Positions 1,190-30,133 of a stretch of DNA of 32,000 nucleotides are shown piece by piece. Every line of letters starts with the position of its first letter. Position 1 is the first letter of the stretch. This stretch comes from an uncultured Lachnospiraceae bacterium (GTDB taxonomy: Bacteria > Bacillota > Clostridia > Lachnospirales > Lachnospiraceae): the NCBI GenBank assembly GCA_949502025.1, contig CATBCG010000073.1:44581-76580 (forward strand), written 5' to 3'. The translations under genes were made by a program, and so were the position numbers. The notes beneath the pieces are model-generated. The model searched no databases. It was not told the origin of the DNA and saw only the letters and a program-made list of their open reading frames with translations.

Positions 1190-1347
1190 AGTAAATTCTC
1201 CTTTTTTAGTAAGTTTCTTCTATAATATAATATCATAAAAAGCGTCCCTTTGAAAAGGAAATTTTAGATGAAAATAATTTAAGAAAGTTCTCCAGAGGAA
1301 GAAAGCGGTTCTGTATAAAAAGTCTGCTTTTGGCACACCCTACTACC

Positions 1348-1770
1348 ATGAATACGAAGAATACCAAAAAATTTATAAAAGATTTTATACTCTGTGGATT
1401 GATTGGCTGGTGCAACGAATGTTTTTGGACGGGGCTTTCTTCTATCAAAGAGCATAAGGACAAACGACTGCCCTGTCAAACTTCTGTCTGGATGTTTCCG
1501 ATCTATGGGATGGCTGCCGTGCTGGCTCCGCTTTCCAGACTGTTAGGCGGCGCCAACGCGCTGATCCGGGGCGGCGTGTATACGCTCTGCATTTTTACGA
1601 TGGAATTTTTATCAGGAAGCTTTTTAAAAAAGCTGCATGTCTGTCCCTGGGACTACAGCAAAGCAAAACTGAATATCCGTGGTGTGATCCGTTTGGATTA
1701 CGCCCCCGCCTGGTTTGCGTTGGGATTGATTTATGAAAAGGTGCTGGGTGGAAGAAAGGCAGGAATATAA
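1348..1770 (+). CDS. Small polytopic membrane protein, PF06541 ('putative ABC-transporter type IV'/DUF1113)-like
   Basis: ORF 1330-1770; I prefer ATG 1348 (MNTKNTKKF). It has hydrophobic segments and the conserved-looking C-terminal motif CPWDYS...NIRGVIRLDY. Confidence 0.65.
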   Translation: MNTKNTKKFIKDFILCGLIGWCNECFWTGLSSIKEHKDKRLPCQTSVWMFPIYGMAAVLAPLSRLLGGANALIRGGVYTLCIFTMEFLSGSFLKKLHVCPWDYSKAKLNIRGVIRLDYAPAWFALGLIYEKVLGGRKAGI

Positions 1771-1787
1771 AAGAATTCCTGCTTTTT
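1759..1787 (+). terminator. Intrinsic terminator overlapping the stop codon of the upstream gene
   Basis: GCAGGAAT (1759-1766) pairs with ATTCCTGC (1775-1782), followed by TTTTT (1783-1787). Confidence 0.6.
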
Positions 1788-1807
1788 CTTTGCTGAAAAT
1801 CTGGTGG

Positions 1808-1837
1808 TTGTCAGACTTTGGTATCTTGTGGTATAAT
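1808..1837 (+). promoter_or_regulatory. Sigma-A-type promoter for the J-like/TPR-Hsp70 operon
   Basis: -35 TTGTCA (1808-1813), an 18-nt spacer, and TGG-TATAAT with the -10 at 1832-1837. It lies ~60 nt upstream of ATG 1896. Confidence 0.5.
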
Positions 1838-1895
1838 GTTAAAATCAGAGAGCTTGATTAAACATTGTGTAGAACATAGAAAGGAAGCAAGCGGT

Positions 1896-4800
1896 ATGGA
1901 AAAAAAGCAGATATTTCATATTCTTGAGATAGAAGAAACCAAGGACGAAGACAGCATTCGGGCGGCGTATCGGGTGCTGTTAAAAAAGACGAATCCGGAG
2001 GACGATCCGGAAGGATTTAAGCGGCTGCGCCAGGCGTATGAAGAAGCGCTCCGTTTTGCGGCACAGTCCGATGAAAAAGAGGGAGAAGAGGACGCGGGGG
2101 AAAAGGATGAGGTCGATCTGTGGATCGATCGTGTTGAAGAGCATTACCGCAATGTATATGCCAGGGGCGATATCAAAAGCTGGCAGGAACTGCTTTCTGA
2201 TCCGGTGTGCGAGGAATTGGATACTTCGATGGAAGCACGGGAAAAGATGCTGGTGTTTTTGATGGATCATGTGCAGATTCCGCATGAGGTCTGGAAGCTG
2301 TTAGACGAGGTGTTTGAGATTCGGGAGAACCGGGAGGCATTGATTCAGCAGTATCCGATCAATTTTATCGACTATGTGATCTATTATATAGAAAACGAAA
2401 CATTTATCCCTTATGATTTGTTTGAAAAGCGGGATTCTGTGGAGAAGAGATCCGATGAAGAAAAGCCGGAGGAGGAAGAGGATGACGGCGATGCCTATAT
2501 CAACGGCTACTTAAACGTCAAGCGGAAAATTGATGCCGGAGAGGCTGAGGGTGGCTCTGGCTCCGAGTGTATGCAGGAGCTAAACGATTTGGCAGCTTAT
2601 GAGGTGTACCATCCGTTTGAGGATGTAGAGCGGGTACGTCTCTATCTGGTGGCAGCAAAGGCGGGTCTGCCGGAATCCGAGAGTATGGCGCAGGTCGCAG
2701 TCCGTTTGGCAGAGGACTTGATGGAGCGCTATCCGGGTCAGTCTTATATCGAACTGTATGCCGGGGAGGCAAACTGGGAAGCAGGAGAAAAGGAAAAGGC
2801 AAAGGAAATTTGGCAGTCTATTTTAGAGCGTTATCCGGAGCATTACCAGGCAAAGTATGATATGGTGCGTTATGAAATGGGAGAAAAGCAGTACTATGAA
2901 GCCAGGGAACGGATGATGGAACTGCTGGAGATAGACGGTCAGAATGAAGAACTGATGGGCTTTTTACAGGAAGCGAACGAAGGATTGATTCCGGAATTCC
3001 GGGAAAAGCTGGCGCGCGGAGAGGAGGATCCGCATTTTCCGGGAGAGGAACTGAAATTGGAGCTGGGCTGGTGTCTGTTCCAGAACGAACGGGCAGAGGA
3101 AGCAGTGGAGATGCTGGCGGACGACGTGCCGTTAGAGGAGCAAAGCTATGGCTACTGCAATTTGTATGGGCGTCTATTGTATCAGCTTGACCGTTATGAG
3201 GAGGCAAGACCGTTTTTGGAGCGGTGGCTGGAGATGATTAGAGAGCTGGTGGATGACGGAACCGCTGAGACAAAGCGGCGGATTTCCAGACATGTCAACG
3301 CCTGCCATATTTTGAGCGATTGCTATTTTGAACTGGGGCGTCAGGAGGATGCCGAGCGGATCATTGAAGAAGGGATTGAATTTGCGCCGGGGCTACGGGA
3401 AAAGTTTGGCTGTTTACAGTATTATGCCAATATTTTATTGAAAACCAAACAGTATGAAAAAGCTGTGGATCTCTGTGACCGGATTATCAAGGAGGATGCG
3501 CAGTATTATCCGGCGTATTTAATCCGGCAGGAATGTTGCTATGAGCTGCACAAGGCGCAGGAGGTCATTGACGACTATCATCGTGCGATTGATATTTTTG
3601 CAGGCTATCATCGTCCGTATATGTTCGCGGCTGAGGTCTTTTTCCATTACAGCCAATACGAGGATGCGATGCGGGTATATAAGCAGGCGAGGGAAAACCA
3701 GGTGGAGTTTTCTCCGCGGATGAAGCTCTATGAGGTAAAAGTGCTGCGTAACCTGGCAGAGAACAAAGAGGATCGGGACAAGGCAAGAGCGATTTTAGAG
3801 GAATTAGAGGAAGCGCGCAAGCAGGAAGAATGTGATTTAGAGGATCGATCGGAAGTCGATTTTGAAAAGGGTCTGTTAGCCTGGGACGACGGAGATCTGG
3901 AAGAAGCATTGGAATACTTAAAAAAGGCGATTAAGGGAAATCCAAATCGGATGCAGTACCGGATGGTGCGCGGAAATATTTTTGCCGATCACAAGGAATA
4001 CCGTCGGGCGTTAGGAGAATACGATATTGCCGGAGAGGATTATAAAAACAGTCCGGGGCTTTACTATGGACGCGCGCTTTGTTATGAGAAGCTGAATAAT
4101 CCGGTTTTAATGGTGGAAAATTATGAAAAGACGTTGGAAATGGAAGAAACCTATGGGGATGCCTGTGAAAATCTGGCAGATTATTACCAGCGGCTGTATC
4201 AAAAGGAATATCGTCCGGAGGATTTTGAAAAGGCGATTGGTTATGCGAGCAGGCAGTTAAAGGCACGGGAAAACTGCTATTATCTCGTTCACCGCGGATT
4301 GATTTATATGAATGCGATGGAGTTGGATCAGGCGATGGCGGATTTCCATAAGGCTCTGGAATATGTGGACGACGATTGGGCAGCGTGGAACAATTTAGGA
4401 TGCTGCTACAAATACAGAGGGGAATTTGAAAAGGCGATCGAGCATTTCCAAAAGTCGGTGGATTGTATGGACGGGGCGGAAAGCGTGCTGCCGTACAGTA
4501 ATATGGCGGATTGCTACGAAGCGATGGGCGATTACCGCAAGGCGATCGAATGCTATGAGAAAGATTTGGAGATGTTTCCGAATTATCAGTCCTTTTGGGA
4601 GGAAATCGGGGATCTGTACTATTATCTGGGCGAATATGAAGAAGCCCTGACTGCGTATGAAAAAATGCGGAAAGGACCAGGGTATGACAAGGCGGTCGGC
4701 GACGTCTTTTTAAAGCAGGGAAAGAAGCGTAAGGCAATCAACGCCTACAAGGCATGGGGACATCAGAGCGGAAAGGAAAGTAACGAAGATCGGGCGGAGC

Positions 4801-5315
4801 GTTATAAAAATCTGGGGGCGCTGTATCTGGAAGAATTAAGCGATTACAACAAAGCTATGACCTGCTTTAAAAAAGCGCTTGACTTGAATTCGGATCCGTA
4901 TGAGCAGTTTGAGTATTACCGTTATCTGGCTAGATGCTGTCATATGTTAAAAAAGTTCAATCAAGCGAAGGAATATGCCAAAGCTTCCCTGGAGAGCTTT
5001 AAAAAGTCGGGCAGTGGAAAGCTAGAGGACTATCTGGCATATAAGCCATATGCTCCGGCGCGTCTGGCTTCGCTTGGCTGGCTGCTGCTTTGTCAAGGGA
5101 AAAAAGAGGAAGCCAGGGAGAATTTTCAGAAGATGGAACAGATCCAGCGCTGCCGCGGCTGCCGCTACCGGGAATGTTTTGAAAGCAGGCTTTATCTGGG
5201 GTATTATTATGAAGCGGTAGGGGACTTAAAGGAAGCAAAGGCACAGTATCAGGAGGCGTTAAAACGAAACCCGCATTGCGACGAGGCAAGAGAAGCGTTA
5301 AATAGACTGGGATAA
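1896..5315 (+). CDS. Large J-domain-like (HPD replaced by NPE) / multi-TPR repeat protein, 1139 aa
   Basis: AAGGAAG RBS at 1881-1887, then ATG 1896 (M27 of track ORF 1818-5315). The N-terminus [48 protein letters not shown] follows the J-domain helix I-III pattern. An acidic linker follows, then many 34-residue TPR-like units (e.g. [55 protein letters not shown]). [10 protein letters not shown] motif sits near the C-terminus. Confidence 0.85.
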
Positions 5316-5351
5316 TGGCTATGAGTAAAAAGGATAGGAGAACAGAGTGTT

Positions 5352-7043
5352 ATGATAATAGGAATTGACCTGGGGACCACCAACAGTCTGGTAGCATATT
5401 TTACAGAGGATGGTCCGCAGATTATACCAAACCGTCTGGGGAAGAGGCTGACCCCGTCGGTAGTTAGTATGGACGAAGAGGAACAGATTTATGTGGGGGA
5501 TTCGGCAGTAGAGCGCGGATTACTGTATCCTGGGAGCGCTGCCAGCGTTTTTAAACGGGATATGGGAAGCCAGAAGAAGTTTTCCCTGCTGCACAAGACA
5601 TTTACGGCAGAGGAGCTTTCTTCCTTTGTGCTGCGGGCTTTAAAAGAGGACGCCGAGCATTACTTGGGAGAAGAGGTGACGGAAGCGGTCATCAGTGTTC
5701 CGGCTTATTTTAACGATGCCAGAAGGCGTGCCACGAAAAAAGCAGGAGAACTGGCAGGCTTAAAGGTAGAGCGGATCATCAGTGAGCCGACGGCGGCTGC
5801 GATTGCCTATGGATTGTACCAGAACCAGGAACACGCCAGATTTTTGGTCTTTGACCTGGGCGGTGGGACGTTTGACGTTTCGATTTTGGAACTGTATGAT
5901 TCGATTATGGAAGTACGTGCCGTTGCCGGGGACAATTTTTTAGGCGGCGAGGATTTTACGGCTGTATTGGAAAACATGTTTTTTGAAAAGTTTTCGCAGC
6001 TTGACCGTTTGACGTTAAACGAAAAAACACTGCGTCATATCCATAAGCAAGCCGAAGCCTGCAAGCTGGGCTTTTCCGAGGGGCGTGATTCGGCGATGCG
6101 CTGCAAGGTAGGAGAGGACTTGCTGACGATGGAGCTGGAATTGCCCAAATACGAAGAGGCTTGTGAGGAGCTGTTGGATAAAATCCGCCAGCCAGTCAAG
6201 AGAAGCTTGGCGGATGCCCATATTCGTCTGACGGATATCGACAAGGTGGTGCTGGTCGGCGGAGCGACAAAGAGCCCTGTTATACGCCGTTTTGTCAGCA
6301 AGCTCTTTAAGCGGCTTCCGGATACGAATATCAATCCGGACGAGGCGGTGGCACTGGGAGCAGCAATCCAGGGGGCGATGAAGGAGCGCAAGGATGCGAT
6401 CAAAGAAGTCATTTTGACGGACGTTTGCCCGTTTACCCTTGGTACAGAGGTAGTCAGAGAGTGGGAGCGGGGGAAATTTGAGGACGGGATGTTCTGCCCG
6501 ATTATCGACCGCAACACGATCATTCCGGCGAGCCGTACCGAACGGCTCTATACGGTACGGGACAATCAGAAGCAGATTCGTGTCAACGTCCTGCAGGGAG
6601 AAAGCCGTTTTGCTGCCAACAACCTGTCTCTTGGGGAGATTTTGATTGAAATTCCAGCCAGCCGAGCCGGAGAAGAAGCAGTGGATGTGACTTATACCTA
6701 TGATATCAATTCGATCCTGGAAGTCGAAGTGAAGGTCGTTTCTACCGGAAAGGTGACAAAGCAGGTATTCCGCGGACGGGACGTCGATATGACGGAAGAG
6801 GAGATAAAAGAGCGCTTTGAAACCTTGTCTTATTTAAAAATCCATCCGCGCGACCGGGAGGAAAATAAATACTTGCTGCTGCGTGGAGAGCGAATCTATG
6901 AGGAAAGTATGGGAGAAAAGCGTCTGATGGTAGAAGCGGCTCTGCACGAATATGAAAAGGCTTTAAACAGTTACGATTCCGCACGTATCGAAGAAGCCAA
7001 AGAGGAATTTAAGGCATTTCTGGAGGAACTGGAAGAGTTTTAG
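5352..7043 (+). CDS. Hsp70-family ATPase, short-lid HscC-like paralogue (563 aa)
   Basis: Motifs IGIDLGTTNS, DLGGGTFDVS, VLVGGATKSP and NPDEAVALGAAIQG are present. A beta-sandwich substrate domain is present (LTDVCPFTLG) with a shortened helical C-terminus. It starts 36 nt after the TPR gene, which implies one operon. Confidence 0.9.
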   Translation: MIIGIDLGTTNSLVAYFTEDGPQIIPNRLGKRLTPSVVSMDEEEQIYVGDSAVERGLLYPGSAASVFKRDMGSQKKFSLLHKTFTAEELSSFVLRALKEDAEHYLGEEVTEAVISVPAYFNDARRRATKKAGELAGLKVERIISEPTAAAIAYGLYQNQEHARFLVFDLGGGTFDVSILELYDSIMEVRAVAGDNFLGGEDFTAVLENMFFEKFSQLDRLTLNEKTLRHIHKQAEACKLGFSEGRDSAMRCKVGEDLLTMELELPKYEEACEELLDKIRQPVKRSLADAHIRLTDIDKVVLVGGATKSPVIRRFVSKLFKRLPDTNINPDEAVALGAAIQGAMKERKDAIKEVILTDVCPFTLGTEVVREWERGKFEDGMFCPIIDRNTIIPASRTERLYTVRDNQKQIRVNVLQGESRFAANNLSLGEILIEIPASRAGEEAVDVTYTYDINSILEVEVKVVSTGKVTKQVFRGRDVDMTEEEIKERFETLSYLKIHPRDREENKYLLLRGERIYEESMGEKRLMVEAALHEYEKALNSYDSARIEEAKEEFKAFLEELEEF

Positions 7044-7101
7044 GGGAGCGCCGGAAAATCCAGTTGTTTTGTACGGAAAGAATAGAATAAAGGAGAAGGA
7101 C

Positions 7102-8112
7102 GTGGAAGGAAAAAAAGAGAGGGACGCGTTGTTTGACAATGCAAGGGCAGTGTTGATTTTTCTGGTGATTATGGGGCATCTGCTGTCCGATCATCTGTCC
7201 GGAGCCAGTAAAATGGCTGGACCGAGGCTGCTAAAGGAAATCTACTTTGCGATCAATATGTTTCATATGCCTGCCTTTGTCTTTATAACAGGATATTTTT
7301 CTAAAAATACCGAAAAGGGCAGAGAAGGAGCAGTAAAAAATTTTCTGATACCTTATTTGGTTTGTAACACGCTATTTGCCTTGATAAGCTATTTGTGTTT
7401 AGGAAAGATTTTGAAATTTACCGATGGCTATAAAGTATTTTCCCCGCAGTTTGGAATGTGGTTTTTCCTGGCTTGTTTTATCTGGAAGCTGCTGGCAAAG
7501 GACATTGACAGGCTTCGGGGCGGTGTGCCGCTTTGTCTGGCGCTGGGTCTGCTGCTGCCGGTTTTACCGGGATTTGACACAACGTTTACGATTGGACGTG
7601 TCGTCGGGTTTTTAGTATTTTTTGTCGCAGGGCTCAAATGCCGTCCGGAATGGATTGAGAAGCTGCGGATGATTCCCGCCTGGATTGGCGGGGTGGTGCT
7701 GGCGTTAGGAGCGGTGATTTCCGGGTGGCTTGCTCAGGACGGGTGGATGAAGCAGGAGACGCTTTATGTAAGGAAATCTTACGTAGACGAAAAGAAATTG
7801 GACTATTTGCTGATGCGTGTAGTATTTTATCTGCTTGCTTCCGTAATGACGCTTGCCTTTTTGGTGCTGATGACAAGGAAGCGGTGTTTCCTGACAGAAA
7901 TCGGGCAAAATACGCTGACCGTTTATGTACTGCATTTATTTCTCATCGATCGATTCCGCGATCTGGAGCTATTTATGGATCAGCATTATCTTTATCTGAT
8001 ACTTTCGATTCCGCTGGCGGCTGCCTTGACGTGGCTGCTGTCGCGAGGCTGTGTCCGACGATGTTACGATAAAGTGATGGGGATCGTTTATGGGATATGT
8101 TTTAGGGAGTAA
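7102..8112 (+). CDS. Acyltransferase family 3 (O-acyltransferase-like) integral membrane protein
   Basis: AGGAG at 7091-7095 is followed 6 nt later by GTG 7102, which I prefer to the track's TTG 7069. The N-terminal motif is FDNARAVLIFLVIMGHL, and there are ~9-10 hydrophobic helices. Confidence 0.75.
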   Translation: MEGKKERDALFDNARAVLIFLVIMGHLLSDHLSGASKMAGPRLLKEIYFAINMFHMPAFVFITGYFSKNTEKGREGAVKNFLIPYLVCNTLFALISYLCLGKILKFTDGYKVFSPQFGMWFFLACFIWKLLAKDIDRLRGGVPLCLALGLLLPVLPGFDTTFTIGRVVGFLVFFVAGLKCRPEWIEKLRMIPAWIGGVVLALGAVISGWLAQDGWMKQETLYVRKSYVDEKKLDYLLMRVVFYLLASVMTLAFLVLMTRKRCFLTEIGQNTLTVYVLHLFLIDRFRDLELFMDQHYLYLILSIPLAAALTWLLSRGCVRRCYDKVMGIVYGICFRE

Positions 8113-8118
8113 ACAATC

Positions 8119-9408
8119 ATGAAACGAGCAGTTGTTTTTTTAAAAAAGGGAGAAGGGCGTACGGTGCGTTCCGGCGGCGCCTGGATTTACGACAACGAGA
8201 TTGCTTTGGTAGAGGGCGATATAGAGCCGGGTGATCTGGTGGATGTATTTGGCAGCAGCGACAATCCACAGAGAAGTTCTTATTTTTTAGGAACCGGCTT
8301 TTACAATGCCACCTCCAAGATTACGATCCGTCTTTTGAGCCGTGAGCGGGTGCAGGAGGCAGACGGAAGTATTCATGGAGTGGAGATTGACCGCGCCTTT
8401 TTAAAAAAGCGGGTAGAAGCTGCCTGGCAGTACCGAAAGGAAACGATGGGAGCAGAGGATACGCTTGGCAGTCAGGCAGAGGATGGTATGACTTTGATAC
8501 CGGGAAGCTGCCGGGTGATATTTGGCGAGGCGGATTTTCTGCCGGGACTGGTGGTGGACAAGTTTTCGGATGTGTTGGTAGTGCAGTCCTTGGCGCTTGG
8601 AATCGATCGGCTGAAAGAGACGATTTTGGATTGCCTGAAAGAAGTATTGGCTGCCGACGGGATTTTGATCCGCGGGGTCTATGAACGGAGCGATGCAAAG
8701 GTACGGGAGCAGGAAGGCATGACGCGTTTAAAGGGCTTTCTGGGAGCAGAATTTGATACCAATATAGAAATCATAGAAAACGGCATCCGCTATCAGGTAG
8801 ATGTTCAGGATGGACAGAAGACCGGATTTTTTCTTGACCAGAAATACAACCGCAAAGCGATCTGGAAAGTCTGCGCCGGAGGGAGAGTGCTAGACTGCTT
8901 TACCCATACCGGTTCCTTTGCGCTCAATGCAGCAATGGCAGGAGCCAGGGAGGTGCTGGCGGTAGACGCTTCTGAACTGGCGGTAGAACAGGGACGGAAA
9001 AATGCGCTTTTAAACGGGCTTTCTGACCGCGTTTCTTTTCAGTGCGCCGATGTGTTTGAACTGCTGCCGGAATTGGAGCGGCGGGGGGAGAAATTTGACG
9101 TGGTAATCCTCGATCCTCCTGCCTTTACGAAATCCAGAGCTTCGGTAAAAAAGGCGATCCGAGGCTATAAAGAAATCAATCTGCGTGGGCTGCGGCTGGT
9201 AAAGGACGGCGGTTATCTGGCAACCTGTTCCTGCTCGCATTTTCTGACGCCGGAGCTATTTGCCGATACGATCGCCAAAGCGGCAAAGGACGCCCATAAA
9301 CGGCTGCGGCAGGTAGAGTTTCGCACGCAGGCGCCGGATCATCCGATTTTATGGTCGGCAGAGGAATCGTATTATTTAAAGTTTTATCTGTTTCAGGTAT
9401 TGGGATAA
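8119..9408 (+). CDS. rlmI: 23S rRNA m5C methyltransferase, RlmI family (PUA + class I SAM MTase)
   Basis: 429 aa. The N-terminal PUA-like region is GEGRTVRSGGAWIYDNEI. The motif QKTGFFLDQK, the SAM motif VLDCFTHTGSFAL, and DPPAF...Y..IN all match the RlmI/RlmK pattern. Confidence 0.8.
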   Translation: MKRAVVFLKKGEGRTVRSGGAWIYDNEIALVEGDIEPGDLVDVFGSSDNPQRSSYFLGTGFYNATSKITIRLLSRERVQEADGSIHGVEIDRAFLKKRVEAAWQYRKETMGAEDTLGSQAEDGMTLIPGSCRVIFGEADFLPGLVVDKFSDVLVVQSLALGIDRLKETILDCLKEVLAADGILIRGVYERSDAKVREQEGMTRLKGFLGAEFDTNIEIIENGIRYQVDVQDGQKTGFFLDQKYNRKAIWKVCAGGRVLDCFTHTGSFALNAAMAGAREVLAVDASELAVEQGRKNALLNGLSDRVSFQCADVFELLPELERRGEKFDVVILDPPAFTKSRASVKKAIRGYKEINLRGLRLVKDGGYLATCSCSHFLTPELFADTIAKAAKDAHKRLRQVEFRTQAPDHPILWSAEESYYLKFYLFQVLG

Positions 9409-13412: not shown

Positions 13413-13554
13413 AGCAAATTCCTCCTTTTTTTACTTGAAACTATTGTTCAGTGTATCACGTTATCCGGAAAATAGCATGGTTGATTGTGCTGATTGTAGA
13501 GAAATTTTTTGTGCAGACTGAACATAGATGGGAAGGAACTAAACGATAAGTTGT

Positions 13555-13583
13555 TTTACAGTTTAGTAAGAAAGCATTATACT
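13555..13583 (+). promoter_or_regulatory. Candidate sigma-A promoter of the HTH-FlhA(C)-like gene
   Basis: TTTACA (13555-13560), a 17-nt spacer, then TATACT (13578-13583), ~50 nt upstream of ATG 13632. Confidence 0.4.
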
Positions 13584-13631
13584 GATAAAGAAAAAACCGG
13601 TAGAAGGCCGGGAGAACAGGAGGAAGAAAAA

Positions 13632-14405
13632 ATGGAATTAACAGGATTAGGGCTACGTTTGCTGGAAGCCAGACAGGCAAAAAGGATGACACAGGAGGAA
13701 CTGGCAGTAAAGCTGGGCGTAACGGCGCAGGCGGTTTCTAAATGGGAACGTGGAGCAGGCTTGCCGGACGTGCCGTTGCTGGCTTCTGCTGCGGAGGTAT
13801 TGGAGGTATCGACGGATTATCTGTTGGGGATTACCATAGAGAACCTGTCCGAAAGCGGGAGAAGCGATGATATGGCAGAGACTATGAAGCTGATTTTAGC
13901 AGAGCCGCTAACCCTCTCTTTTGGCGTCGGGCTGCTTCCGGTAGTATCAAAAGCGAATCAGGATGGCTTCCCACAGATTCAGAAATTGCGGAAACGATAT
14001 GCCGAAGAAAAGGGCTGGCTGATACCAACGATTCGGATTCGGGATGAAATAAAGTTTGGAGAATATGAATACCGGATAATGGTCTATGAGGAAGTTGCAG
14101 AAAGCGGAACCTTATCGGAGGAAGCAGAGTTTGAAGAGCTGGTTCTGGCTTTGGAACGGGCAGTCGCTTCTCATTACGCCAGACTGTTAAATCGTCAGGT
14201 AGTAAAACGGCTTTTGGATTATGTTCGGATGTATTATCCGGCAGCCATAGACGGCATTGTTCCAGAACGGATCTCCTATCAAAAGATACAAAGAGAGTTA
14301 AGGAAACGGGTACAGGAGGGGAAATCCATTCGGAGTTTGCTGGAAATTTTGGAGGAGTTGGAGGAGTTGGAGGAGTTAGAAGAGGAAGCGAGATTAGGGG
14401 AGTAA
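13632..14405 (+). CDS. XRE-family HTH domain fused to a minimal FlhA/FHIPEP cytoplasmic-domain-like module (257 aa)
   Basis: GGAGGAAG RBS, then ATG 13632 (M42 of the track ORF). The N-terminus LRLLEARQAKRMTQEELAVKLGVTAQAVSKWERG is a classic HTH_3. The remainder (PLTLSFGVGLLPVV...QIQKLRKRYAEEKGWLIPTIRIRDEIKFGEYEYRIMVYEEVAESG ... LLNRQVVKRLLDYV...) follows the FlhA linker/SD1/SD3 consensus (LELGYGLIPLVD ... P.IRIRDN..L....Y.I...G). There are no transmembrane segments. Confidence 0.75.
   Translation: MELTGLGLRLLEARQAKRMTQEELAVKLGVTAQAVSKWERGAGLPDVPLLASAAEVLEVSTDYLLGITIENLSESGRSDDMAETMKLILAEPLTLSFGVGLLPVVSKANQDGFPQIQKLRKRYAEEKGWLIPTIRIRDEIKFGEYEYRIMVYEEVAESGTLSEEAEFEELVLALERAVASHYARLLNRQVVKRLLDYVRMYYPAAIDGIVPERISYQKIQRELRKRVQEGKSIRSLLEILEELEELEELEEEARLGE
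14351..14377 (+). repeat. Perfect 3 x 9-bp tandem repeat (GGAGGAGTT) encoding the ELEELEELE tail
   Basis: Read directly: units at 14351-14359, 14360-14368 and 14369-14377, followed by a degenerate AGAAGAGGAAG. Confidence 0.9.
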
Positions 14406-14564: not shown

Positions 14565-15829
14565 GTGGCGGAAAGCCAAAATATTGAATGGAAGGAATCA
14601 TGGCGTGACGAATATCTTAAATGGATATGCGGTTTTGCAAATGCTCAAGGTGGAAAAATATATATTGGCACAAATGATAAGGGCAACGTAATCGGAATAC
14701 AAGATAGTAAAAAACTGTTGGAAGATATTCCGAATAAAGTCCGGGATGTTCTTGGTATTCTTGTGGATGTAAATTTATTGGAAAAAGATGGGCGAGACTA
14801 TATTGAGATTTGTGTGAATGCAAATAGCTATCCAGTCAACTATAAAGGTGAATATCATTACCGGAGCGGCAGCACCAAGCAGCAGTTGAAAGGACAAGCA
14901 TTGAATCAATTCCTATTACAGAAAACGGGAATTACCTGGGATAGTGTACCGGTTCGGGATATAATTGTACAAGATTTAAGAAATGACAGTTTTGATATTT
15001 TTCGAGAACAGGCAGTCCTTAGCAAGCGAATGGACAGCTTAAAAGAGCCGCCGTTTTACTTTTCCATCATAACCCGGAAAAATGGATACCAGGAGCTTAT
15101 ATTAAGATTGGCTACTTTGAATCGGATTCTGAACTTAGGTATCAGGATGAAATACATGGTTCTCTAATAGCACAGGCGGAAAAAGTGGTTGATCTTATTT
15201 TTACCAAATATTTGAAAGCAGACATTTCTTATCATGGAGTAACAAGAGTAGAAACGTATCCATTTCCCAAAGATGCGATCAGAGAAGCTGTTTTTAATGC
15301 GATTGCACATAAATTTTATGGAGCTTTGATTCCAATTCAGATTAGCATATATGCCGATAGAATTTATATTGCAAATGATTGTATTTTTCCTGAAGATTGG
15401 ACACTTGATGATTTAATGGGAAAGCACAGGTCAAGACCTTATAATCCGTTAATTGCCAACACATTTTTTCGGGCTGGTTTTATCGAAGCATGGGGGCGAG
15501 GAATTGAGAAAATTAAGGATAGCTGTAAGGAAGCCGGAAATCCTATGCCAAAGTATACTATCAAAAGAGAAGATATTATGGTGATGTTTAAGAGCTTGGT
15601 TAGTGATACTGACCAAGCTACTAACCAAGCTAACCAAGGTAGTGACAATTCTGTAGCTGCACGTATTTTAAAGGTAATTCAAGAAGAACCAACGCTGTCA
15701 CAGAAAAAAATTGCGGATGTTATTGGAGAAAAATACAGTACAGTAAAATATTATATGGAATCTATGAAAAAATCTGGGATTATAAAGAGAGAAGGTTCCA
15801 GTCAAAAAGGGAAATGGATGGTTTTATAA
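14565..15829 (+). pseudogene. Disrupted AlbA_2 (Schlafen-like DNA-binding) + HATPase_c_4 + C-terminal wHTH 'putative transcriptional regulator/ATP-binding' gene
   Basis: Track ORFs 14565-15167 and 15185-15829 are the two halves of one family. The N-terminus is ESQNIEWKESWRDEYLKWICGFANAQGGKIYIG. The ORF2 frame is already open from 15023 and there reads QLKRAAVLLFHHNPEKWIPGAYIKIGYFESDSELRYQDEIHGSLIAQAEKVVDLIF. The tail of ORF1 (PPFYFSIITRKNGYQ...) looks like out-of-frame noise. The frame change lies within 15023-15060. Confidence 0.7.
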
Positions 15830-21520: not shown

Positions 21521-23230
21521 TTATAATTGGATACCGCCGGAAGCACTCCTGGCATATTCTTCCCGAAGCTTAAATTTCGCTACAAGGGATTTGAGCATTT
21601 CAGCCTGGCTGGAAAGCTCTTCGCTGGCAGCGGCGCTTTCCTGTGCGGTAGCAGAGGTCATCAGAACGACGCTGGAAATCTGATCGACGCCTAATGTTAC
21701 CTGCTCGATAGCGCCTGCCTGATCTTCGGCTGCGCTGGCGATCTTGTCTACCATGGAGGAAGCATTTTGTACATCACCGACTACCTTTAACAGTGATTCG
21801 GCTGTTTCTTTTGCAAGCTGTGTACCATGCGCTACGGCTTCGATCGAATTTTCAATGAGGTCAGCCGTATTTTTGGAGGCTTCAGAACTCTTGCTGGCAA
21901 GGCTGCGGACTTCGGATGCTACAACGGCAAAGCCTTTGCCTGCGGCTCCGGCGCGGGTAGCCTCTACAGCAGCGTTTAACGCCAATATGTTTGTCTGGAA
22001 TGCAATGTCGGAAATCGTTTTGATGATTTTGCTGATTTCATCCGAAGTACGGGTGATTTCTTCCATAGCGACGGTCAGCTCTTTCATCTGAGCATTACAT
22101 TTTTCTGCTTCCGTACCGGCAGTATTGGACTGATTTCTGGCGCCGGAAGCATTTTCGGCCGTTTCCTTTACCTGGCGGGAAATATCGCCGATCGTAGCGG
22201 CAAGCTCTTCTACAGAAGCAGCCTGTTCGGTAGCTCCTTGAGAAAGGGACTGCGCGCCGCCGGAAACCTGGTTAGCGCCGGAAGCAACCTGATCGGAACT
22301 TAGGTTGATCTGACCTAACGTAAAGCTTAAATCACGGTTGAGCTTCCGGATGGAAAGAAGGAGACCTTGGAATGCTCCTACATAACATTCTTCCGCTCTG
22401 GTACGTACGTCGAAATTGCCGTTTGCCATTTCTTCTAAAAGTCTGGAAGCATCCGTAATGACATTTCCCAGGATAGAAGTCATATTTTTAAAAGCGGCAG
22501 CCAGACGACCCAATTCATCCTTTGACTCGTAGGTTATTTGGATGTCAAAATCACCTTCTAAGATCTTTCCGGCTGAAACTTCCAGCTCACGTAGCGGTCT
22601 GGTGATGATGTTGGTCAGATAAGCGGAGAGAACCAGAGTAATCACCAAAGCGATACCTGCCATACCAAGCTGTGCGGCAACTAACAGGTTTTGCATTTCC
22701 TTTGTTTCCTGATAAGAGTCATCCGCATTTGCATTAGCTACGTTACTGATTTGGATTAAAGCGTCTACCGACTCCGTAATCAATGGTTGGTATTCATTTA
22801 ACAGCATCTCCTGGGCGGCTTTCATATCCGTGGCAGTAAGACCAATAATCGTAGCTTGCATTTCCACTGCCTTTGTGATGCTTTCGGAAAAGTTTTCCAA
22901 CATTTCCGGATTGCCCTGGAAATGCGAGAATACCCAGTTTCCATTTTCTTGTAAAAGCTCTAGCTCCTTTTCCATATCAGCCTGATATTCTGCACATTTT
23001 GCACTGTCCTCCTGAATAGTTATCAAACCGAGATCCTTGACAATGATCTGCAAGCCGCGGCGCATGTTCATGATTCGGTTTGTAACCTGATACCCGACGT
23101 TGTAAAAGTCCGAGTAGCTGTCTGAATTTCGCTGTAATCCGATGATAGCTACCGTGACAGTTGCACAAAACAGCACGATAATCGTCATAAAGGTTACAAG
23201 CAGTTTGATTCTGATTCTCAGGTTTTTCAT
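21521..23230 (-). CDS. Methyl-accepting chemotaxis protein (helical sensor domain + HAMP + MA signalling domain)
   Basis: I prefer the start at ATG 23230 (MKNLRIRIKLLVTFMTIIV), with a GGAGGA RBS. TM1 is followed by a ~190-aa ligand domain, TM2, HAMP (RPLRELEVSAGKILEGDFD), and the conserved hairpin (AFQTNILALNAAVEAARAG-like). Confidence 0.9.
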   Translation of the reverse strand: MKNLRIRIKLLVTFMTIIVLFCATVTVAIIGLQRNSDSYSDFYNVGYQVTNRIMNMRRGLQIIVKDLGLITIQEDSAKCAEYQADMEKELELLQENGNWVFSHFQGNPEMLENFSESITKAVEMQATIIGLTATDMKAAQEMLLNEYQPLITESVDALIQISNVANANADDSYQETKEMQNLLVAAQLGMAGIALVITLVLSAYLTNIITRPLRELEVSAGKILEGDFDIQITYESKDELGRLAAAFKNMTSILGNVITDASRLLEEMANGNFDVRTRAEECYVGAFQGLLLSIRKLNRDLSFTLGQINLSSDQVASGANQVSGGAQSLSQGATEQAASVEELAATIGDISRQVKETAENASGARNQSNTAGTEAEKCNAQMKELTVAMEEITRTSDEISKIIKTISDIAFQTNILALNAAVEATRAGAAGKGFAVVASEVRSLASKSSEASKNTADLIENSIEAVAHGTQLAKETAESLLKVVGDVQNASSMVDKIASAAEDQAGAIEQVTLGVDQISSVVLMTSATAQESAAASEELSSQAEMLKSLVAKFKLREEYARSASGGIQL

Positions 23231-23315
23231 TTCAGTCCTCCTTGTTTTGTGATTAGGAAACGATCTTGTACCCTCCTGGCAGGTACGTAAATCGTTCGTA
23301 AAGTATACAAGGATC

Positions 23316-23344
23316 ATTATAGCTTCTTTTACCGAATTTGTCTA
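23316..23344 (-). promoter_or_regulatory. Candidate sigma-A promoter of the MCP gene
   Basis: Read on the minus strand: TAGACA (23339-23344), a 17-nt spacer, then TATAAT (23316-23321). It lies inside the 5' extension of the track ORF, which supports the shorter CDS. Confidence 0.45.
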
Positions 23345-23405: not shown

Positions 23406-23984
23406 TTATAAATTCAGATTCAGAAAAATCTTATCCTTATCATCTTGTTCAATTCCTAAATACCGTTTGGTAATCTGGAAGGACGAATGATTGAACAGGA
23501 CGGTTAATACGGTGGCGTTGGCTCCGTTAGCCCATGCCTGATAGCCGAATGTTTTGCGAAGAGAATGACAACTGATATGTTCGGAAAGGTGCAGGGCGAA
23601 GCAGGCATGTTTGATGATACGAAATGCCTGAGAACGGCTTAGAGGGGTTCCGAATTTTCTTCCGGTAAAAATGTAGTCCTGTGGACGGGCTCTTGGTACG
23701 CTGGTCAAATAGAGGGAAAGCGCTTGCTGTACGCTTTGGTTGATGGCGATACAGGTTTCTTTTCCGGTTTTTTGCTCCAACAGGATAATATGCCTGCGAA
23801 ATTTCCCTCTGGTAAACTGATAGGTATCCTCCCAACGAAGCGAAAGCAAATCGCCGACCCTTAAAGCCGTGTTGAGTCCGGTGTTGATCAAGGCGTAGTT
23901 ACGTAAATTCCGTTCCTGATATAAATAGTAGTTCTTTAGTGCTTCCAGATCGTTTTTGTCTTTAATCGGGTGTGTTGTCCCCAT
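23406..23984 (-). CDS. Tyrosine recombinase/site-specific integrase, catalytic domain only (192 aa)
   Basis: AGGAGGAA RBS. Candidate catalytic residues are R in TALRVGDLLSL, HSLRKTFG (H-x-x-R), NHSS, and the Y in TKRYLG. There is no N-terminal SAM-like core-binding domain. Confidence 0.85.
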   Translation of the reverse strand: MGTTHPIKDKNDLEALKNYYLYQERNLRNYALINTGLNTALRVGDLLSLRWEDTYQFTRGKFRRHIILLEQKTGKETCIAINQSVQQALSLYLTSVPRARPQDYIFTGRKFGTPLSRSQAFRIIKHACFALHLSEHISCHSLRKTFGYQAWANGANATVLTVLFNHSSFQITKRYLGIEQDDKDKIFLNLNL

Positions 23985-27161: not shown

Positions 27162-27370
27162 GAATTGTCTGCAAAAAATCCTTTGAATTTTCCGCCGTTT
27201 AGTATATAATGGATACGTGGTATGTCAAATGAGGGATTTATACGCTGCTGTCCTCTGAATGGAAAGCGGCGTTTCAAAGCATCTCAGCTTGCGGAAAGGG
27301 ACGTTTTCAGAGTGGCCGTTCGCAGGGATAGATAAACGTATTGAGTGGAAAAGAAGAAAGGAGTAGCAGG

Positions 27371-28360
27371 ATGTTAGGAAGTGATATTGGTATTGATTTG
27401 GGGACGGCGAGCGTTCTGGTGTATATGAAAGGAAAGGGCGTCGTATTAAAGGAGCCGTCCGTAGTGGCTTTTGACCGTGATTCCGGCAAGATTAAGGCGA
27501 TCGGGGAGGAAGCCCGGCTGATGTTAGGAAGGACGCCGGGCAATATCGTAGCAGTGCGTCCGCTGCGCCAGGGCGTGATTTCCGATTATACGGTGACAGA
27601 AAAAATGATGAAATATTTTATCCAGAAGGCAGGCGGCAGGCAGCGCTTCCGTAAGCCTCGGATCAGTGTCTGCGTACCGAGCGGTGTGACCGAAGTAGAA
27701 AAAAAGGCTGTAGAGGACGCGACTTATCAGGCGGGAGCCAGAGAGGTAGCGATCATCGAAGAGCCGATTGCAGCGGCAATCGGGGCGGGGATCGATATTT
27801 CCAGACCATGCGGCAATATGATCGTCGATATCGGAGGCGGTACGACAGATATCGCAGTGATTTCCCTTGGCGGTACGGTAGTCAGTACGTCGATTAAAAT
27901 TGCCGGAGACGATTTTGACGAAGCGATTGTTCGTTATATGAGAAAGAAACATAATCTGCTGATCGGTGAAAGAACCGCAGAGGAGATCAAGATCAAGATT
28001 GGATCCGCCTACAAGCGACCGGAAGTAGAGACCTTTGACGTAAGAGGGCGAAACCTGGTGACAGGTCTGCCAAAGACGATTACCGTCAGCTCCGAGGAGA
28101 CCGAGGAGGCGTTAAAGGAAGCTACTTCTCAGGTGGTAGAGGCAGTTCACAGCGTATTGGAGAAAACGCCGCCGGAATTGGCTGCCGATATCGCAGACCG
28201 CGGTATCGTGCTGACCGGAGGGGGAAGTCTGCTCTATGGATTAGAGGAGCTGATTGAAGAGAAGACCGGAATCAATACGATGACCGCTGAAGATCCGATG
28301 ACCGCCGTAGCGATTGGGACAGGGAAGTTTGTAGAATTTTTAAGCGGAAAAAGAGATTAG
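27371..28360 (+). CDS. mbl: MreB/Mbl actin-like rod-shape protein
   Basis: AAGGAG sits 7 nt before ATG 27371. Motifs are IGIDLGTASVLVY, DIGGGTTDIAV and GIVLTGGGSLL. Its position directly upstream of two rod genes mirrors B. subtilis mbl-flhO-flhP. Confidence 0.85.
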   Translation: MLGSDIGIDLGTASVLVYMKGKGVVLKEPSVVAFDRDSGKIKAIGEEARLMLGRTPGNIVAVRPLRQGVISDYTVTEKMMKYFIQKAGGRQRFRKPRISVCVPSGVTEVEKKAVEDATYQAGAREVAIIEEPIAAAIGAGIDISRPCGNMIVDIGGGTTDIAVISLGGTVVSTSIKIAGDDFDEAIVRYMRKKHNLLIGERTAEEIKIKIGSAYKRPEVETFDVRGRNLVTGLPKTITVSSEETEEALKEATSQVVEAVHSVLEKTPPELAADIADRGIVLTGGGSLLYGLEELIEEKTGINTMTAEDPMTAVAIGTGKFVEFLSGKRD

Positions 28361-28384
28361 CAAGAGAAAAGGGGCAGATAATTC

Positions 28385-29161
28385 ATGGTAAGGACGTTAT
28401 ATACGGCATATACCGGCATGAAAAATGAGCAGTATCGACTGGACATTATATCCAATAACCTGGCAAATGTATCGACGGCAGGCTATAAGGAAGAAAGCGT
28501 GGCAAACCAGTCGTTTGACGATGTAATGGCGATTAAAATCCGCGACGTATCGGAAGCCTGGGCAGATCGCCCTATCGGGCAGATGAGCCTGGGAGTAAAG
28601 ATAGGAGAAGTCTATACCGATTATAAGCAGGGCTCCGTAAGGGAGACCGGCAATACCTTTCATCTGGCGCTGGAGGGCAAAGGCTTTTTTGCGCTCCGCG
28701 TGGTAAACCAGAACGGGGAGGAGTCTATTAAGTATACACGAGACGGAAATTTCAAGATGACGAACGAGGGACTGATCGTAGATGCCTATGGAAACAACCT
28801 CCAGAGCGAATCCGGGAACTTACAGATTCCGACCGAGGCGACCGAGGTCAGCATCAGCCCGGACGGGACAGTGAGAGCAGACGGCGTAGTAATAGACAAC
28901 ATTGTGGTTCGGGATTTTGAGGACTACGACTACCTGAATAAGTACGGCGACAATATGTATGAGACGATCGAAGGAGCAGAGGAGCGCGAGACGTCCGCGT
29001 TGATTATGCAGGGCTTTATCGAGCAGTCCAACGTCAATTCAGTACGAGAGATGGTAGAGATGATCAATATTACCAGAGCTTATGAGGCGAACCAGAAGGT
29101 TATCCAGACTACCGACAGTATGCTAGAGCAAGTGACTACTTCGGTTGGACGGGTAGGATAA
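28385..29161 (+). CDS. flhO: Flagellar basal-body rod protein (FlgF/FlhO-like)
   Basis: The N-terminus YTAYTGMKNEQYRLDIISNNLANVSTAGYK is the Flg_bb_rod motif. The C-terminus GFIEQSNVNSVREMVEMINITRAYEANQKVI is the Flg_bbr_C motif. Confidence 0.85.
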   Translation: MVRTLYTAYTGMKNEQYRLDIISNNLANVSTAGYKEESVANQSFDDVMAIKIRDVSEAWADRPIGQMSLGVKIGEVYTDYKQGSVRETGNTFHLALEGKGFFALRVVNQNGEESIKYTRDGNFKMTNEGLIVDAYGNNLQSESGNLQIPTEATEVSISPDGTVRADGVVIDNIVVRDFEDYDYLNKYGDNMYETIEGAEERETSALIMQGFIEQSNVNSVREMVEMINITRAYEANQKVIQTTDSMLEQVTTSVGRVG

Positions 29162-29248
29162 TAGAGGCTGCAAAAGGCAGCAGAGAAACAAAATAAATAA
29201 TAAGCCATGCAACGGGTTTGTTGCAGAAAAATCAGGAGGCATAATACG

Positions 29249-30133
29249 ATGATGAGATCGTTATGGACGGCATCTTCCGGTATGCTGTCACAACAGACTA
29301 ATCTGGATACGATTGCGCACAATCTGTCCAATATCAATACCGTTGGTTATAAAAAGGAAACGGCAGAATTTAAGTCTCTGCTTTACCAGACCATCAAGGA
29401 GGCTTCTACAGACAGTGAGGGGAATCCGAAGGCAACTGCGATTCAGGTAGGTTCCGGCGTGCGGAATTCGGCAATTACTTCTGTTTTTGTTCAGGGACCA
29501 CTGACTGCTTCGGACGGACCGTTTGATTTGGGTATCCAGGGCAACGGCTTTTTTATGGTACGAGATACGGCAGGAGAGACTGCATATACAAGAAGCGGCT
29601 CCTTTCAGGCTGCGATGACCACAGAGGGAAACGTCATTTTGGCAACCTCAGACGGGAATCCGGTGCTGAACAGTCAGGGCGGAGAGATTATTTTATGGCA
29701 GCGTCAGGGGACGGACGGCGGCGCGGGCAATACCGGCGACGCCCAGACAAATTCGACCCAGAACTGGAGTGTGGACGATATCATCGTTGACGAGTCCGGT
29801 CAGGTACTGCGAGAAGTACGGGGTGAAACGACGGTTTCGTATGATTTATTAGGAAGAATCGGTGTGGCACAGTTTAACAATCCATCCGGACTGATCAAGG
29901 CGGGCGGCAGTTTGTTGTATGAGTCGGATGCTTCAGGAGCCGCGAGGATAGAAGGTCAGGATACCGGATTAAAGAACAGTGTCGTAAAACAAGGCTATCT
30001 GGAAGCCTCCAACGTACAGGCGGTAGACGAAATGGTCAATATGATCGTGGCGCAGAGAGCCTACGAACTGAATTCCAAGATTATTACGGCTTCCGATGAA
30101 ATGCTGCAGCAAGCAAATAATCTAAGACGTTAA
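29249..30133 (+). CDS. flgG: Flagellar distal rod protein FlgG/FlhP-like
   Basis: AGGAGG (29234-29239), then ATG 29249 (MMRSLWTASSGMLSQQTNLDTIAHNLSNINTVGYKK). The C-terminus is GYLEASNVQAVDEMVNMIVAQRAYELNSKII. I prefer this start to the track's 29207. Confidence 0.85.
   Translation: MMRSLWTASSGMLSQQTNLDTIAHNLSNINTVGYKKETAEFKSLLYQTIKEASTDSEGNPKATAIQVGSGVRNSAITSVFVQGPLTASDGPFDLGIQGNGFFMVRDTAGETAYTRSGSFQAAMTTEGNVILATSDGNPVLNSQGGEIILWQRQGTDGGAGNTGDAQTNSTQNWSVDDIIVDESGQVLREVRGETTVSYDLLGRIGVAQFNNPSGLIKAGGSLLYESDASGAARIEGQDTGLKNSVVKQGYLEASNVQAVDEMVNMIVAQRAYELNSKIITASDEMLQQANNLRR

Follow-up and report, generated by a model that had tools for sequence, protein, structure and literature searches.

HscC is one of only three bacterial Hsp70 types and is still largely unexplored (PMC8215388, PMC13580251). 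Its hallmarks are a length of 550–580 amino acids (aa), deletions corresponding to DnaK residues 76–101, to the D211-loop and to the GrpE-signature at 290–295, an insertion of 4–8 residues in loop L1,2 and a 9-aa deletion in the lid (PMC8215388). In Escherichia coli, DjlC stimulates the HscC ATPase (Kluck 2002, as cited in PMC8215388). The J-domains of DjlB and DjlC carry the triad His-Pro-Glu (HPE), not His-Pro-Asp (HPD), and HPE is found in about 1% of J-domains, these two included (PMC10410713). In the J-domain field HPD is held to be obligatory, and a 2026 review gives HPE as the only tolerated replacement and asks whether other deviations are accidental or selected (PMC13254874). Here we describe a two-gene module at positions 1808–7043 of a 32,000-nucleotide (nt) stretch of DNA from an uncultured Lachnospiraceae bacterium (contig CATBCG010000073.1). 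The whole stretch is called the window, and features lie on its + strand unless stated otherwise. Gene 1 encodes a large tetratricopeptide repeat (TPR) protein with a J-domain whose triad is Asn-Pro-Glu (NPE), and gene 2 encodes an Hsp70. We consider it probable that the two genes form one operon for a self-contained HscC-class Hsp70 machine, in which gene 1 is a private J-protein with a client-selecting TPR scaffold.

Gene 2 (5352–7043, 563 aa) consists of a nucleotide-binding domain (NBD), an EVILTDV linker at aa 352–358, the β part of the substrate-binding domain (SBD-β) with a long L1,2 insertion, and a shortened lid. An initial annotation, made from the letters of the window, had described it as a 563-aa Hsp70 with intact ATPase motifs and a shortened lid, and this was borne out, the Pfam HSP70 hidden Markov model (HMM) giving 438 bits. 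Alignment with E. coli HscC extended over the full length with 43% identity and 3% gaps (438 bits), compared with 35% identity and 14% gaps (325 bits) for E. coli DnaK, and gene 2 scored under the NCBIfam equivalog cut-offs for DnaK and HscA. The list of HscC features was taken from the Mayer 2021 review (PMC8215388) and checked by three-way alignment of gene 2, HscC and DnaK. The length is inside the HscC range, and both the DnaK 76–101 segment of NBD lobe I and the D211-loop are deleted in gene 2 as in E. coli HscC, the D208 and D211 columns being gaps in 72 of 72 orthologues. The GrpE-signature loop is missing, leaving the same 6-residue gap as in HscC, the 9-residue deletion in lid helix B is identical to that of HscC, and the protein ends in an acidic and aliphatic tail, as HscCs do. 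Compared with DnaK, the L1,2 insertion is 9 residues long in gene 2 and 4 in E. coli HscC, the former slightly above the quoted range of 4–8. By these features gene 2 is an HscC-type Hsp70. It also looks functional, as its catalytic and allosteric residues are intact: K70, P143, R151, E171, R167, Q378, D393, N415, P419 and L484 (DnaK numbering) are invariant in all 72 orthologues, of which 70 keep D148 as Asp and 2 have Glu in its place. Because the GrpE-signature loop is missing, gene 2 is probably GrpE-independent. No HscC-type structure was found in the PDB, where the best matches of gene 2 are DnaKs. The exact gene 2 protein is present in NCBI as ‘molecular chaperone HscC’; the Hsp70 half of the module is already known and correctly annotated.

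Gene 1 (1896–5315, 1139 aa) encodes a class-C J-domain protein composed of a J-domain, an acidic linker, a helical middle domain and a TPR solenoid. The J-domain, with helices I–III, occupies aa 1–56 (1896–2063). Over the first 58 residues, identity to the J-domain of DjlB is 62% and to that of DjlC 50% (E = 7e-17 and 1e-15), and hhalign against DjlC aligned DjlC residues 4–98 at 98% probability, running through the acidic linker, with the homology stopping at about residue 100. The loop that follows the triad is 6 residues shorter than in DnaJ, a shortening common to DjlB and DjlC, and Glu at triad position 3 is likewise shared with them. The best PDB match of the gene 1 family profile was the DnaJ J-domain in the DnaK–DnaJ complex 5NRO (E = 6.5e-5). 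In an AlphaFold2 (AF2) model of the N-terminal part (aa 1–262), the mean predicted local distance difference test score (pLDDT) was 89.1, and the J-domain blocks reached 90–96. Y25, F41, L44 and R45 do not vary among gene 1 orthologues, K42 hardly does, and R22 and R26 are majority residues; the equivalents of the DnaJ docking residues Y25, F47, K48 and K51 are thus invariant or nearly invariant, and those of R22 and K26 are the majority residues. These matches to DjlB, DjlC and 5NRO uphold the J-domain pattern of about 60 aa that the initial annotation had seen at the N-terminus, and what it had offered as an analogy with HscC and DjlB/DjlC proves to be true homology in both proteins. Gene 1 is the cognate J-domain protein of gene 2, and by this homology its J-domain belongs to the DjlB/DjlC subclass. 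Its public annotation is only ‘tetratricopeptide repeat protein’; the J half of the module is unrecognised in databases, and the module itself is not a new kind of system.

The triad of gene 1, N33-P34-E35 (1992–2000), aligns to H33-P34-D35 of E. coli DnaJ, exactly as had been reported for these nucleotides. The earlier use of HPD as the reference triad needs qualification: the triad is indeed not HPD, but the baseline of the DjlB/DjlC subclass is HPE, and therefore only the change from His to Asn is unusual in gene 1. In a first search NPED was found in 120 of 120 full-length orthologues, and an exhaustive profile search returned 611 clusters (50% identity) at E ≤ 1e-30, and 1,833 clusters at E ≤ 1e-10. 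In the 241 family members that reach 980 aa or more, NPE was counted 224 times, HPE 15 times, and KPE and SPE once each, so that the triad of gene 1 is a family trait, and the possibility of a strain-specific degenerate copy was refuted. His (CAY) and Asn (AAY) codons are one base apart. In 79 genomes the Asn codon was AAT in 51 and AAC in 28, all four Pro codons were used, and Glu was GAG in 63 and GAA in 16. Because synonymous codons vary at all three positions, the amino acids of the triad are kept by selection and are not merely young. On this comparative evidence, NPE is a selected feature kept in hundreds of gut Lachnospiraceae species and not a product of decay. No NPE J-domain was described in the literature searched, a search outside which the Barriot et al. 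2020 survey of bacterial J-domain proteins lay.

The HPE members are scattered through the family, most of them being closest to an NPE protein. With Fitch parsimony, a neighbour-joining tree requires at least 14 changes, an estimate as crude as the tree behind it. In one metagenomic locus (L083), the counterpart of gene 1 is of the HPE type and co-linear with it (35% identity over 1147 aa), and its Hsp70 is 82% identical to gene 2. When Hsp70 columns were compared between NPE- and HPE-partnered proteins, no compensating residues that track the His/Asn state were found. N170S (DnaK numbering) was rejected as a candidate, Ser being present in all NPE-partnered Hsp70s yet also in 7 of 49 HPE-partnered ones, and eight clade-specific columns were rejected as well, all of them showing the ‘NPE’ residue in the HPE-partnered Hsp70 of L083. 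The partners of the triad in 5NRO are DnaK R167, Q378, P419 and the linker Leu (PMC8215388), and all four are invariant in gene 2 orthologues. The simplest reading of these patterns is that His and Asn are near-equivalent at triad position 1 in this J-TPR system; a hydrogen bond to the backbone carbonyl of the linker could in principle come from either side chain. The earlier suggestion of a non-canonical J-like interface needs qualification, since repeated His/Asn swaps with no detectable change in the Hsp70 argue against one that is fundamentally different.

A scan of one genome per species gave at least 599 pattern matches, of which at least 529 were confirmed as relatives, almost all of them in Lachnospiraceae, for example in the cultivable Hungatella hathewayi DSM 13479. 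Among 80 loci kept, the Hsp70 gene lay directly downstream of gene 1 in all 75 with enough DNA, a synteny that agrees with the dedicated, co-conserved pair expected from the initial annotation. The gap between the genes in relatives has a median of 5 nt, and in 27 of 73 loci the genes overlap by 4 nt, which suggests translational coupling. Constraint is much tighter on the Hsp70 than on gene 1, with identity typically 82% across genera versus 30–51% for gene 1, and a mean p-distance of 0.21 (70 orthologue pairs) versus 0.59; for the Hsp70 this looks like housekeeping-style constraint. No other conserved neighbours were seen in the 80 genomes, further recurrent clusters being antisense open reading frame (ORF) artefacts or local synteny in at most 14 loci. 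The pairing is a general one: HPE-type J-proteins of many architectures (220–1171 aa) adjoin an HscC-type Hsp70 in 67 of 79 metagenome loci.

Identity, architecture, linkage and conservation together carry the proposal of a self-contained machine, in which gene 1 would serve as the client adaptor. The promoter would drive both genes. The TPR solenoid, perhaps with the middle domain, would bind a client or assemble a complex, acting as adaptor or scaffold for the Hsp70, while the flexibly tethered J-domain would dock on the junction of NBD, linker and SBD-β of the ATP-state Hsp70, as DnaJ does on DnaK. In such a complex E35 would contact the invariant R141 and Q340 (DnaK R167 and Q378), P34 would contact P392 (DnaK P419), and the side-chain amide of N33 would supply, in place of His, the hydrogen bond to the linker backbone. 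ATP hydrolysis, triggered by this docking, would then capture the client. Stimulation of the gene 2 ATPase by an NPE J-domain is what conservation and linkage lead us to infer. Nucleotide exchange would be intrinsic, because the GrpE contacts are missing. The Hsp70 tail ...FLEELEEF might also dock on the TPRs, in the manner of eukaryotic EEVD tails.

Several points weigh against this proposal. The family of genes 1 and 2 is characterised here by sequence comparison and models. The Pfam DnaJ model (PF00226) gave gene 1 only 21.7 bits (E = 2e-4), under its cut-off of 27.8. E. coli DjlB and DjlC are also sub-threshold, at 21.1 and 19.3 bits; because they score equally low, the low score is a trait of the subclass, and it is largely due to the shorter post-triad loop. 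Foldseek of the N-terminal model retrieved J-domains at probabilities of 0.84–0.94 and template modelling (TM) scores of 0.5–0.6 with non-significant E-values, and in the full-length AF2 model the pLDDT of the J-domain was only 62–86. The correlation between the distance matrices of gene 1 and the Hsp70 (r = 0.87, reached by 0 of 999 permutations) speaks for the pairing but is confounded by shared species phylogeny. Three distant HPE-type J-TPR loci (L084, L091 and L120; proteins of 918–1151 aa) with several kb of flanking DNA have no adjacent Hsp70 gene, so that beyond the Lachnospiraceae NPE clade not every relative shows the linkage. Changing the His of the triad to Gln abolishes ATPase stimulation in all J-systems tested (PMC8215388, PMC13254874), and since this change is lethal to stimulation and HPE is the sole tolerated variant, the Asn triad could be inactive.

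On that account the NPE J-domain would bind the Hsp70 and leave its ATPase unstimulated, like the ‘type IV’ J-like proteins, and the TPR protein would be a tether, inhibitor or regulator (cf. Pam16), or the Hsp70 would be merely structural. The KPE and SPE variants fit such a role, since the first triad position could then lack a catalytic use. Yet the remaining Hsp70-docking surface and the Pro-Glu of the triad are invariant, as are R167 and Q378, the Hsp70 partners of the third triad residue, and the module has no linked second J-protein of the canonical kind. HPE and NPE alternate among close relatives with nearly the same Hsp70 (82% in L083), which fits equivalence better than repeated loss and regain. 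We regard a non-stimulating J-domain as unlikely. A second DnaK system under heat-shock control, redundant in general stress and with a TPR protein that is no more than a generic holdase, would agree with the intact Hsp70 fold and substrate-binding domain and with the fairly broad set of peptides bound by E. coli HscC (PMC8215388), but gene 2 has every HscC-specific indel, the gene 1 J-protein is not of class A or B, and E. coli HscC and DnaK are not interchangeable, DnaJ failing to stimulate HscC (PMC8215388). Nor does the window support it: none of its 27 other scanned ORFs is a grpE or dnaJ gene, as the initial annotation had noted for the vicinity, and no CIRCE/HrcA heat-shock operator was matched anywhere in the window with 3 mismatches allowed. 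Such a stress chaperone is very improbable.

The signalling or conflict-type system that the initial annotation had also raised found no support; as an anti-phage device, the TPR array would sense the invader and the Hsp70 would be effector or activator. Large TPR sensors are common in defence proteins, gene 1 has weak, generic TPR matches in PADLOC (E = 2e-4 to 4e-3), and the copy on a Bacillus mycoides plasmid has immunity genes of polymorphic toxins in its vicinity. However, PADLOC-DB v2 gave nothing for the Hsp70 and nothing specific for gene 1, on which ground the defence reading was set aside. In the at least 529 species-representative genomes that have it, the pair stands in surroundings that are partly housekeeping and partly variable, no accessory or mobile genes being conserved with it, and the Hsp70 is constrained across genera to the degree given above. 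In the phage collection, the relatives found were two short J-domain-only matches (query aa 6–56) in tiny unannotated records, and none included the J-domain together with the middle region. The module neighbours in the window are housekeeping genes that are not conserved, with no defence-island or mobile context, and the module has a G+C fraction (GC) of 0.46–0.51, like the flanking genes, so that the earlier statement on matching base composition stands. Nothing on a combination of Hsp70, J-domain, anti-phage function and TPRs was found in the literature searched. We give a conflict system hardly any credence.

The private HscC machine can be extended into a bolder version, doubtful as a whole, which joins three proposals: that the HPD code is relaxed in the HscC class, with Asn as good as His; that the TPRs clamp the Hsp70 tail; and that the CxxCx4C motif of gene 1 responds to metal or thiols. 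With a relaxed code, Lys or Ser at triad position 1 may occasionally work too, and NPE J-domains would be fully active on their own Hsp70 and blind to DnaK, giving an insulated chaperone circuit. A TPR clamp on ...FLEELEEF may be the bacterial counterpart of the eukaryotic EEVD–TPR contact, and a metal or thiol response through the CxxCx4C loop may echo the Cd2+ phenotype of E. coli hscC mutants. Whatever the fate of this version, the NPE family provides a clean example from nature of a triad without His that purifying selection maintains in hundreds of species, each time together with a dedicated and highly constrained Hsp70, and its HPE relatives are built-in controls. The HPD rule can be tested on it, and it gives a way into HscC biology. 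For annotation it means that entries named ‘tetratricopeptide repeat protein’ include thousands of HscC co-chaperones.

Set beside E. coli HscC with DjlB (YbeS) and DjlC (YbeV), the module shares the Hsp70 with the same diagnostic indels, the J-domain subclass and the chromosomal neighbourhood of J gene and hscC. It differs in the triad, HPE there and NPE in gene 1, and in the body of the J-protein: DjlB and DjlC have bodies of about 420 aa with a C-terminal tail-anchor transmembrane helix (hydropathy maxima 2.39 and 1.99), whereas no transmembrane segment was found in gene 1 (maximum Kyte–Doolittle(19) value 0.82), which is predicted to be soluble. The Lachnospiraceae module is also a single co-directional operon with the J gene first, unlike the E. 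coli locus, and it has none of the DUF1266 (YbeR/YbeU) and Sel1-repeat (YbeQ/YbeT) genes found there. DUF1266 accompanies DjlB/DjlC-type J genes by hscC both in E. coli K-12 at 676–683 kb (L081; ybeR-djlB and ybeU-djlC) and on Bacillus mycoides p334 (L162), and the E. coli locus adds the Sel1-repeat (TPR-like) genes ybeQ and ybeT beside djlB and djlC. The B. mycoides megaplasmid hscC–J–DUF1266 cluster, as annotated by the Prokaryotic Genome Annotation Pipeline (PGAP), resembles the present module in that an HscC-type Hsp70 adjoins a J-protein with J-domain, middle region and TPRs, and tblastn of gene 1 matched this J-protein over query aa 5–183 at 28% identity. There, however, the J-protein has 432 aa, few TPRs and an HPE triad, the Hsp70 gene comes first, a DUF1266 gene follows and the cluster is plasmid-borne.

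Among eukaryotic co-chaperones, DNAJC7/TPR2 and DNAJC3/p58IPK likewise combine TPR repeats and a J-domain in one protein, and ‘DnaJ-TPR’ is a recognised class-C architecture (PMC10410713). The likeness of these proteins to gene 1 is one of architecture, with no specific sequence relationship shown, and they serve canonical Hsp70s. The J-domain of DNAJC7 and DNAJC3 is C-terminal and carries HPD. The eukaryotic TPR clamp on the acidic C-terminal tail of Hsp70 is a possible further parallel, because the tail of gene 2 is conserved. That tail, ...FKAFLEELEEF (7002–7040), is acidic and hydrophobic, and a docking role for it would be hypothetical. Across HscC-type Hsp70s, from L099–L138 and other metagenome loci, C-terminal tails are strongly conserved within each clade, one large clade ending in ...LDxFEGETWL and the TPR-partnered clade in ...FLEELEEF or ...FLEMMEE, and such clade-specific tails suggest a docking motif. 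The ‘type IV’ J-like proteins, such as DNAJB13 (HPL) and Pam16 (DKE/DKS), also have a triad other than HPD (PMC13254874). Unlike them, gene 1 keeps Pro and an acidic third residue, its NPE alternates with HPE within one family, and it has a dedicated Hsp70 in the same operon.

The remainder of gene 1 corresponds in part to what had been described. The acidic linker, the TPRs and the CxxCx4C motif are all present, but a helical middle domain of about 185 aa sits before the TPRs, and the TPR part amounts to about 900 aa. The linker (aa 57–71, 2064–2108) is disordered, with pLDDT below 50 at residues 59–68. W, Y, R, D and P residues are invariant in the conserved middle domain (aa ~72–255, 2109–2660). 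Pfam gave no match to this domain and did not connect it with DUF1266, a Foldseek search with the N-terminal model gave no PDB match to it, and a middle-domain-only HMM gave no match to DjlB or DjlC. It does recur in other HscC-linked J-proteins (E 1e-10 to 1e-65). PF27158 is precomputed on all gene 1 homologues and is without an entry in the Pfam version scanned here. The TPR solenoid (aa ~256–1139, 2661–5312) comprises about 45 helices, matches many Pfam TPR families and is continuous to the C-terminus in the full-length AF2 model, which is all-helical with a mean pLDDT of 90.5. Foldseek matched it to the long TPR scaffolds IFT139/TTC21B, Ski3, Ctr9 and OGT (E 1e-17 to 1e-10). Its most conserved stretch, aa 525–620 (3468–3755), is conserved as strongly as the J-domain and is a candidate binding surface. 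Near the C-terminus, the motif C1086-x2-C1089-x4-C1094-x-E1096 (5151–5183) lies in a loop between two modelled helices. The three Cys are invariant in 120 of 120 orthologues, E1096 is nearly so, and the motif is present too in distant HPE-type relatives; it is a possible metal site, and CxxCx4C might bind metal.

Upstream, the module is bounded by a terminator-like hairpin of a CmpB-like gene (1759–1782, no strand assigned), with an 8-pair stem that is T-rich on both sides. The SigA/sigma-70-type promoter-like site that had been placed ahead of the two genes was found at 1808–1837 as TTGTCA–18 nt–TGnTATAAT, with an extended −10 and 11 of 12 positions matched, and is the top-scoring site in the scanned 1200–8300; it is a putative promoter. 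Gene 1 starts at the ATG at 1896, just 3′ of the ribosome-binding site AAAGGAAG, and the 36-nt intergenic spacer (5316–5351) that separates it from gene 2, again as reported, contains an AGGAGA ribosome-binding site and no terminator. No terminator-like site was seen 3′ of gene 2 at 7044–7110. For the Acyl_transf_3 ORF that lies downstream, a GTG near 7102 with the ribosome-binding site AAGGAGAA is a likelier start than the listed TTG at 7069. This ORF may be co-transcribed with the module in the source genome; as a neighbour it is common only to the closest relative (L001).

Further features of the window lie apart from the module. An ORF of 298 aa at 13509–14405 is an odd fusion, in which an XRE-type HTH_3 domain is joined to a piece that matches positions 318–403 of the FHIPEP (FlhA-type export gate) profile. 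An AlbA_2/Schlafen ORF (14565–15167) adjoins an ORF with HATPase_c_4 and HTH_24 domains (15185–15829), with GC at 0.37–0.40 at 14–16 kb; the two resemble halves of a single gene, which may be a pseudogene or left over from acquired DNA. On the − strand at 23406–23984, between a methyl-accepting chemotaxis protein (MCP) gene and a DegV gene, a 192-aa ORF has only the catalytic Phage_integrase domain and may be a truncated recombinase. An MreB/Mbl homologue followed by two FlgF/FlgG-type flagellar rod genes was found at 27341–30133, and the MCP gene at 21521–23317, so that genes for motility and chemotaxis are present in the source organism.

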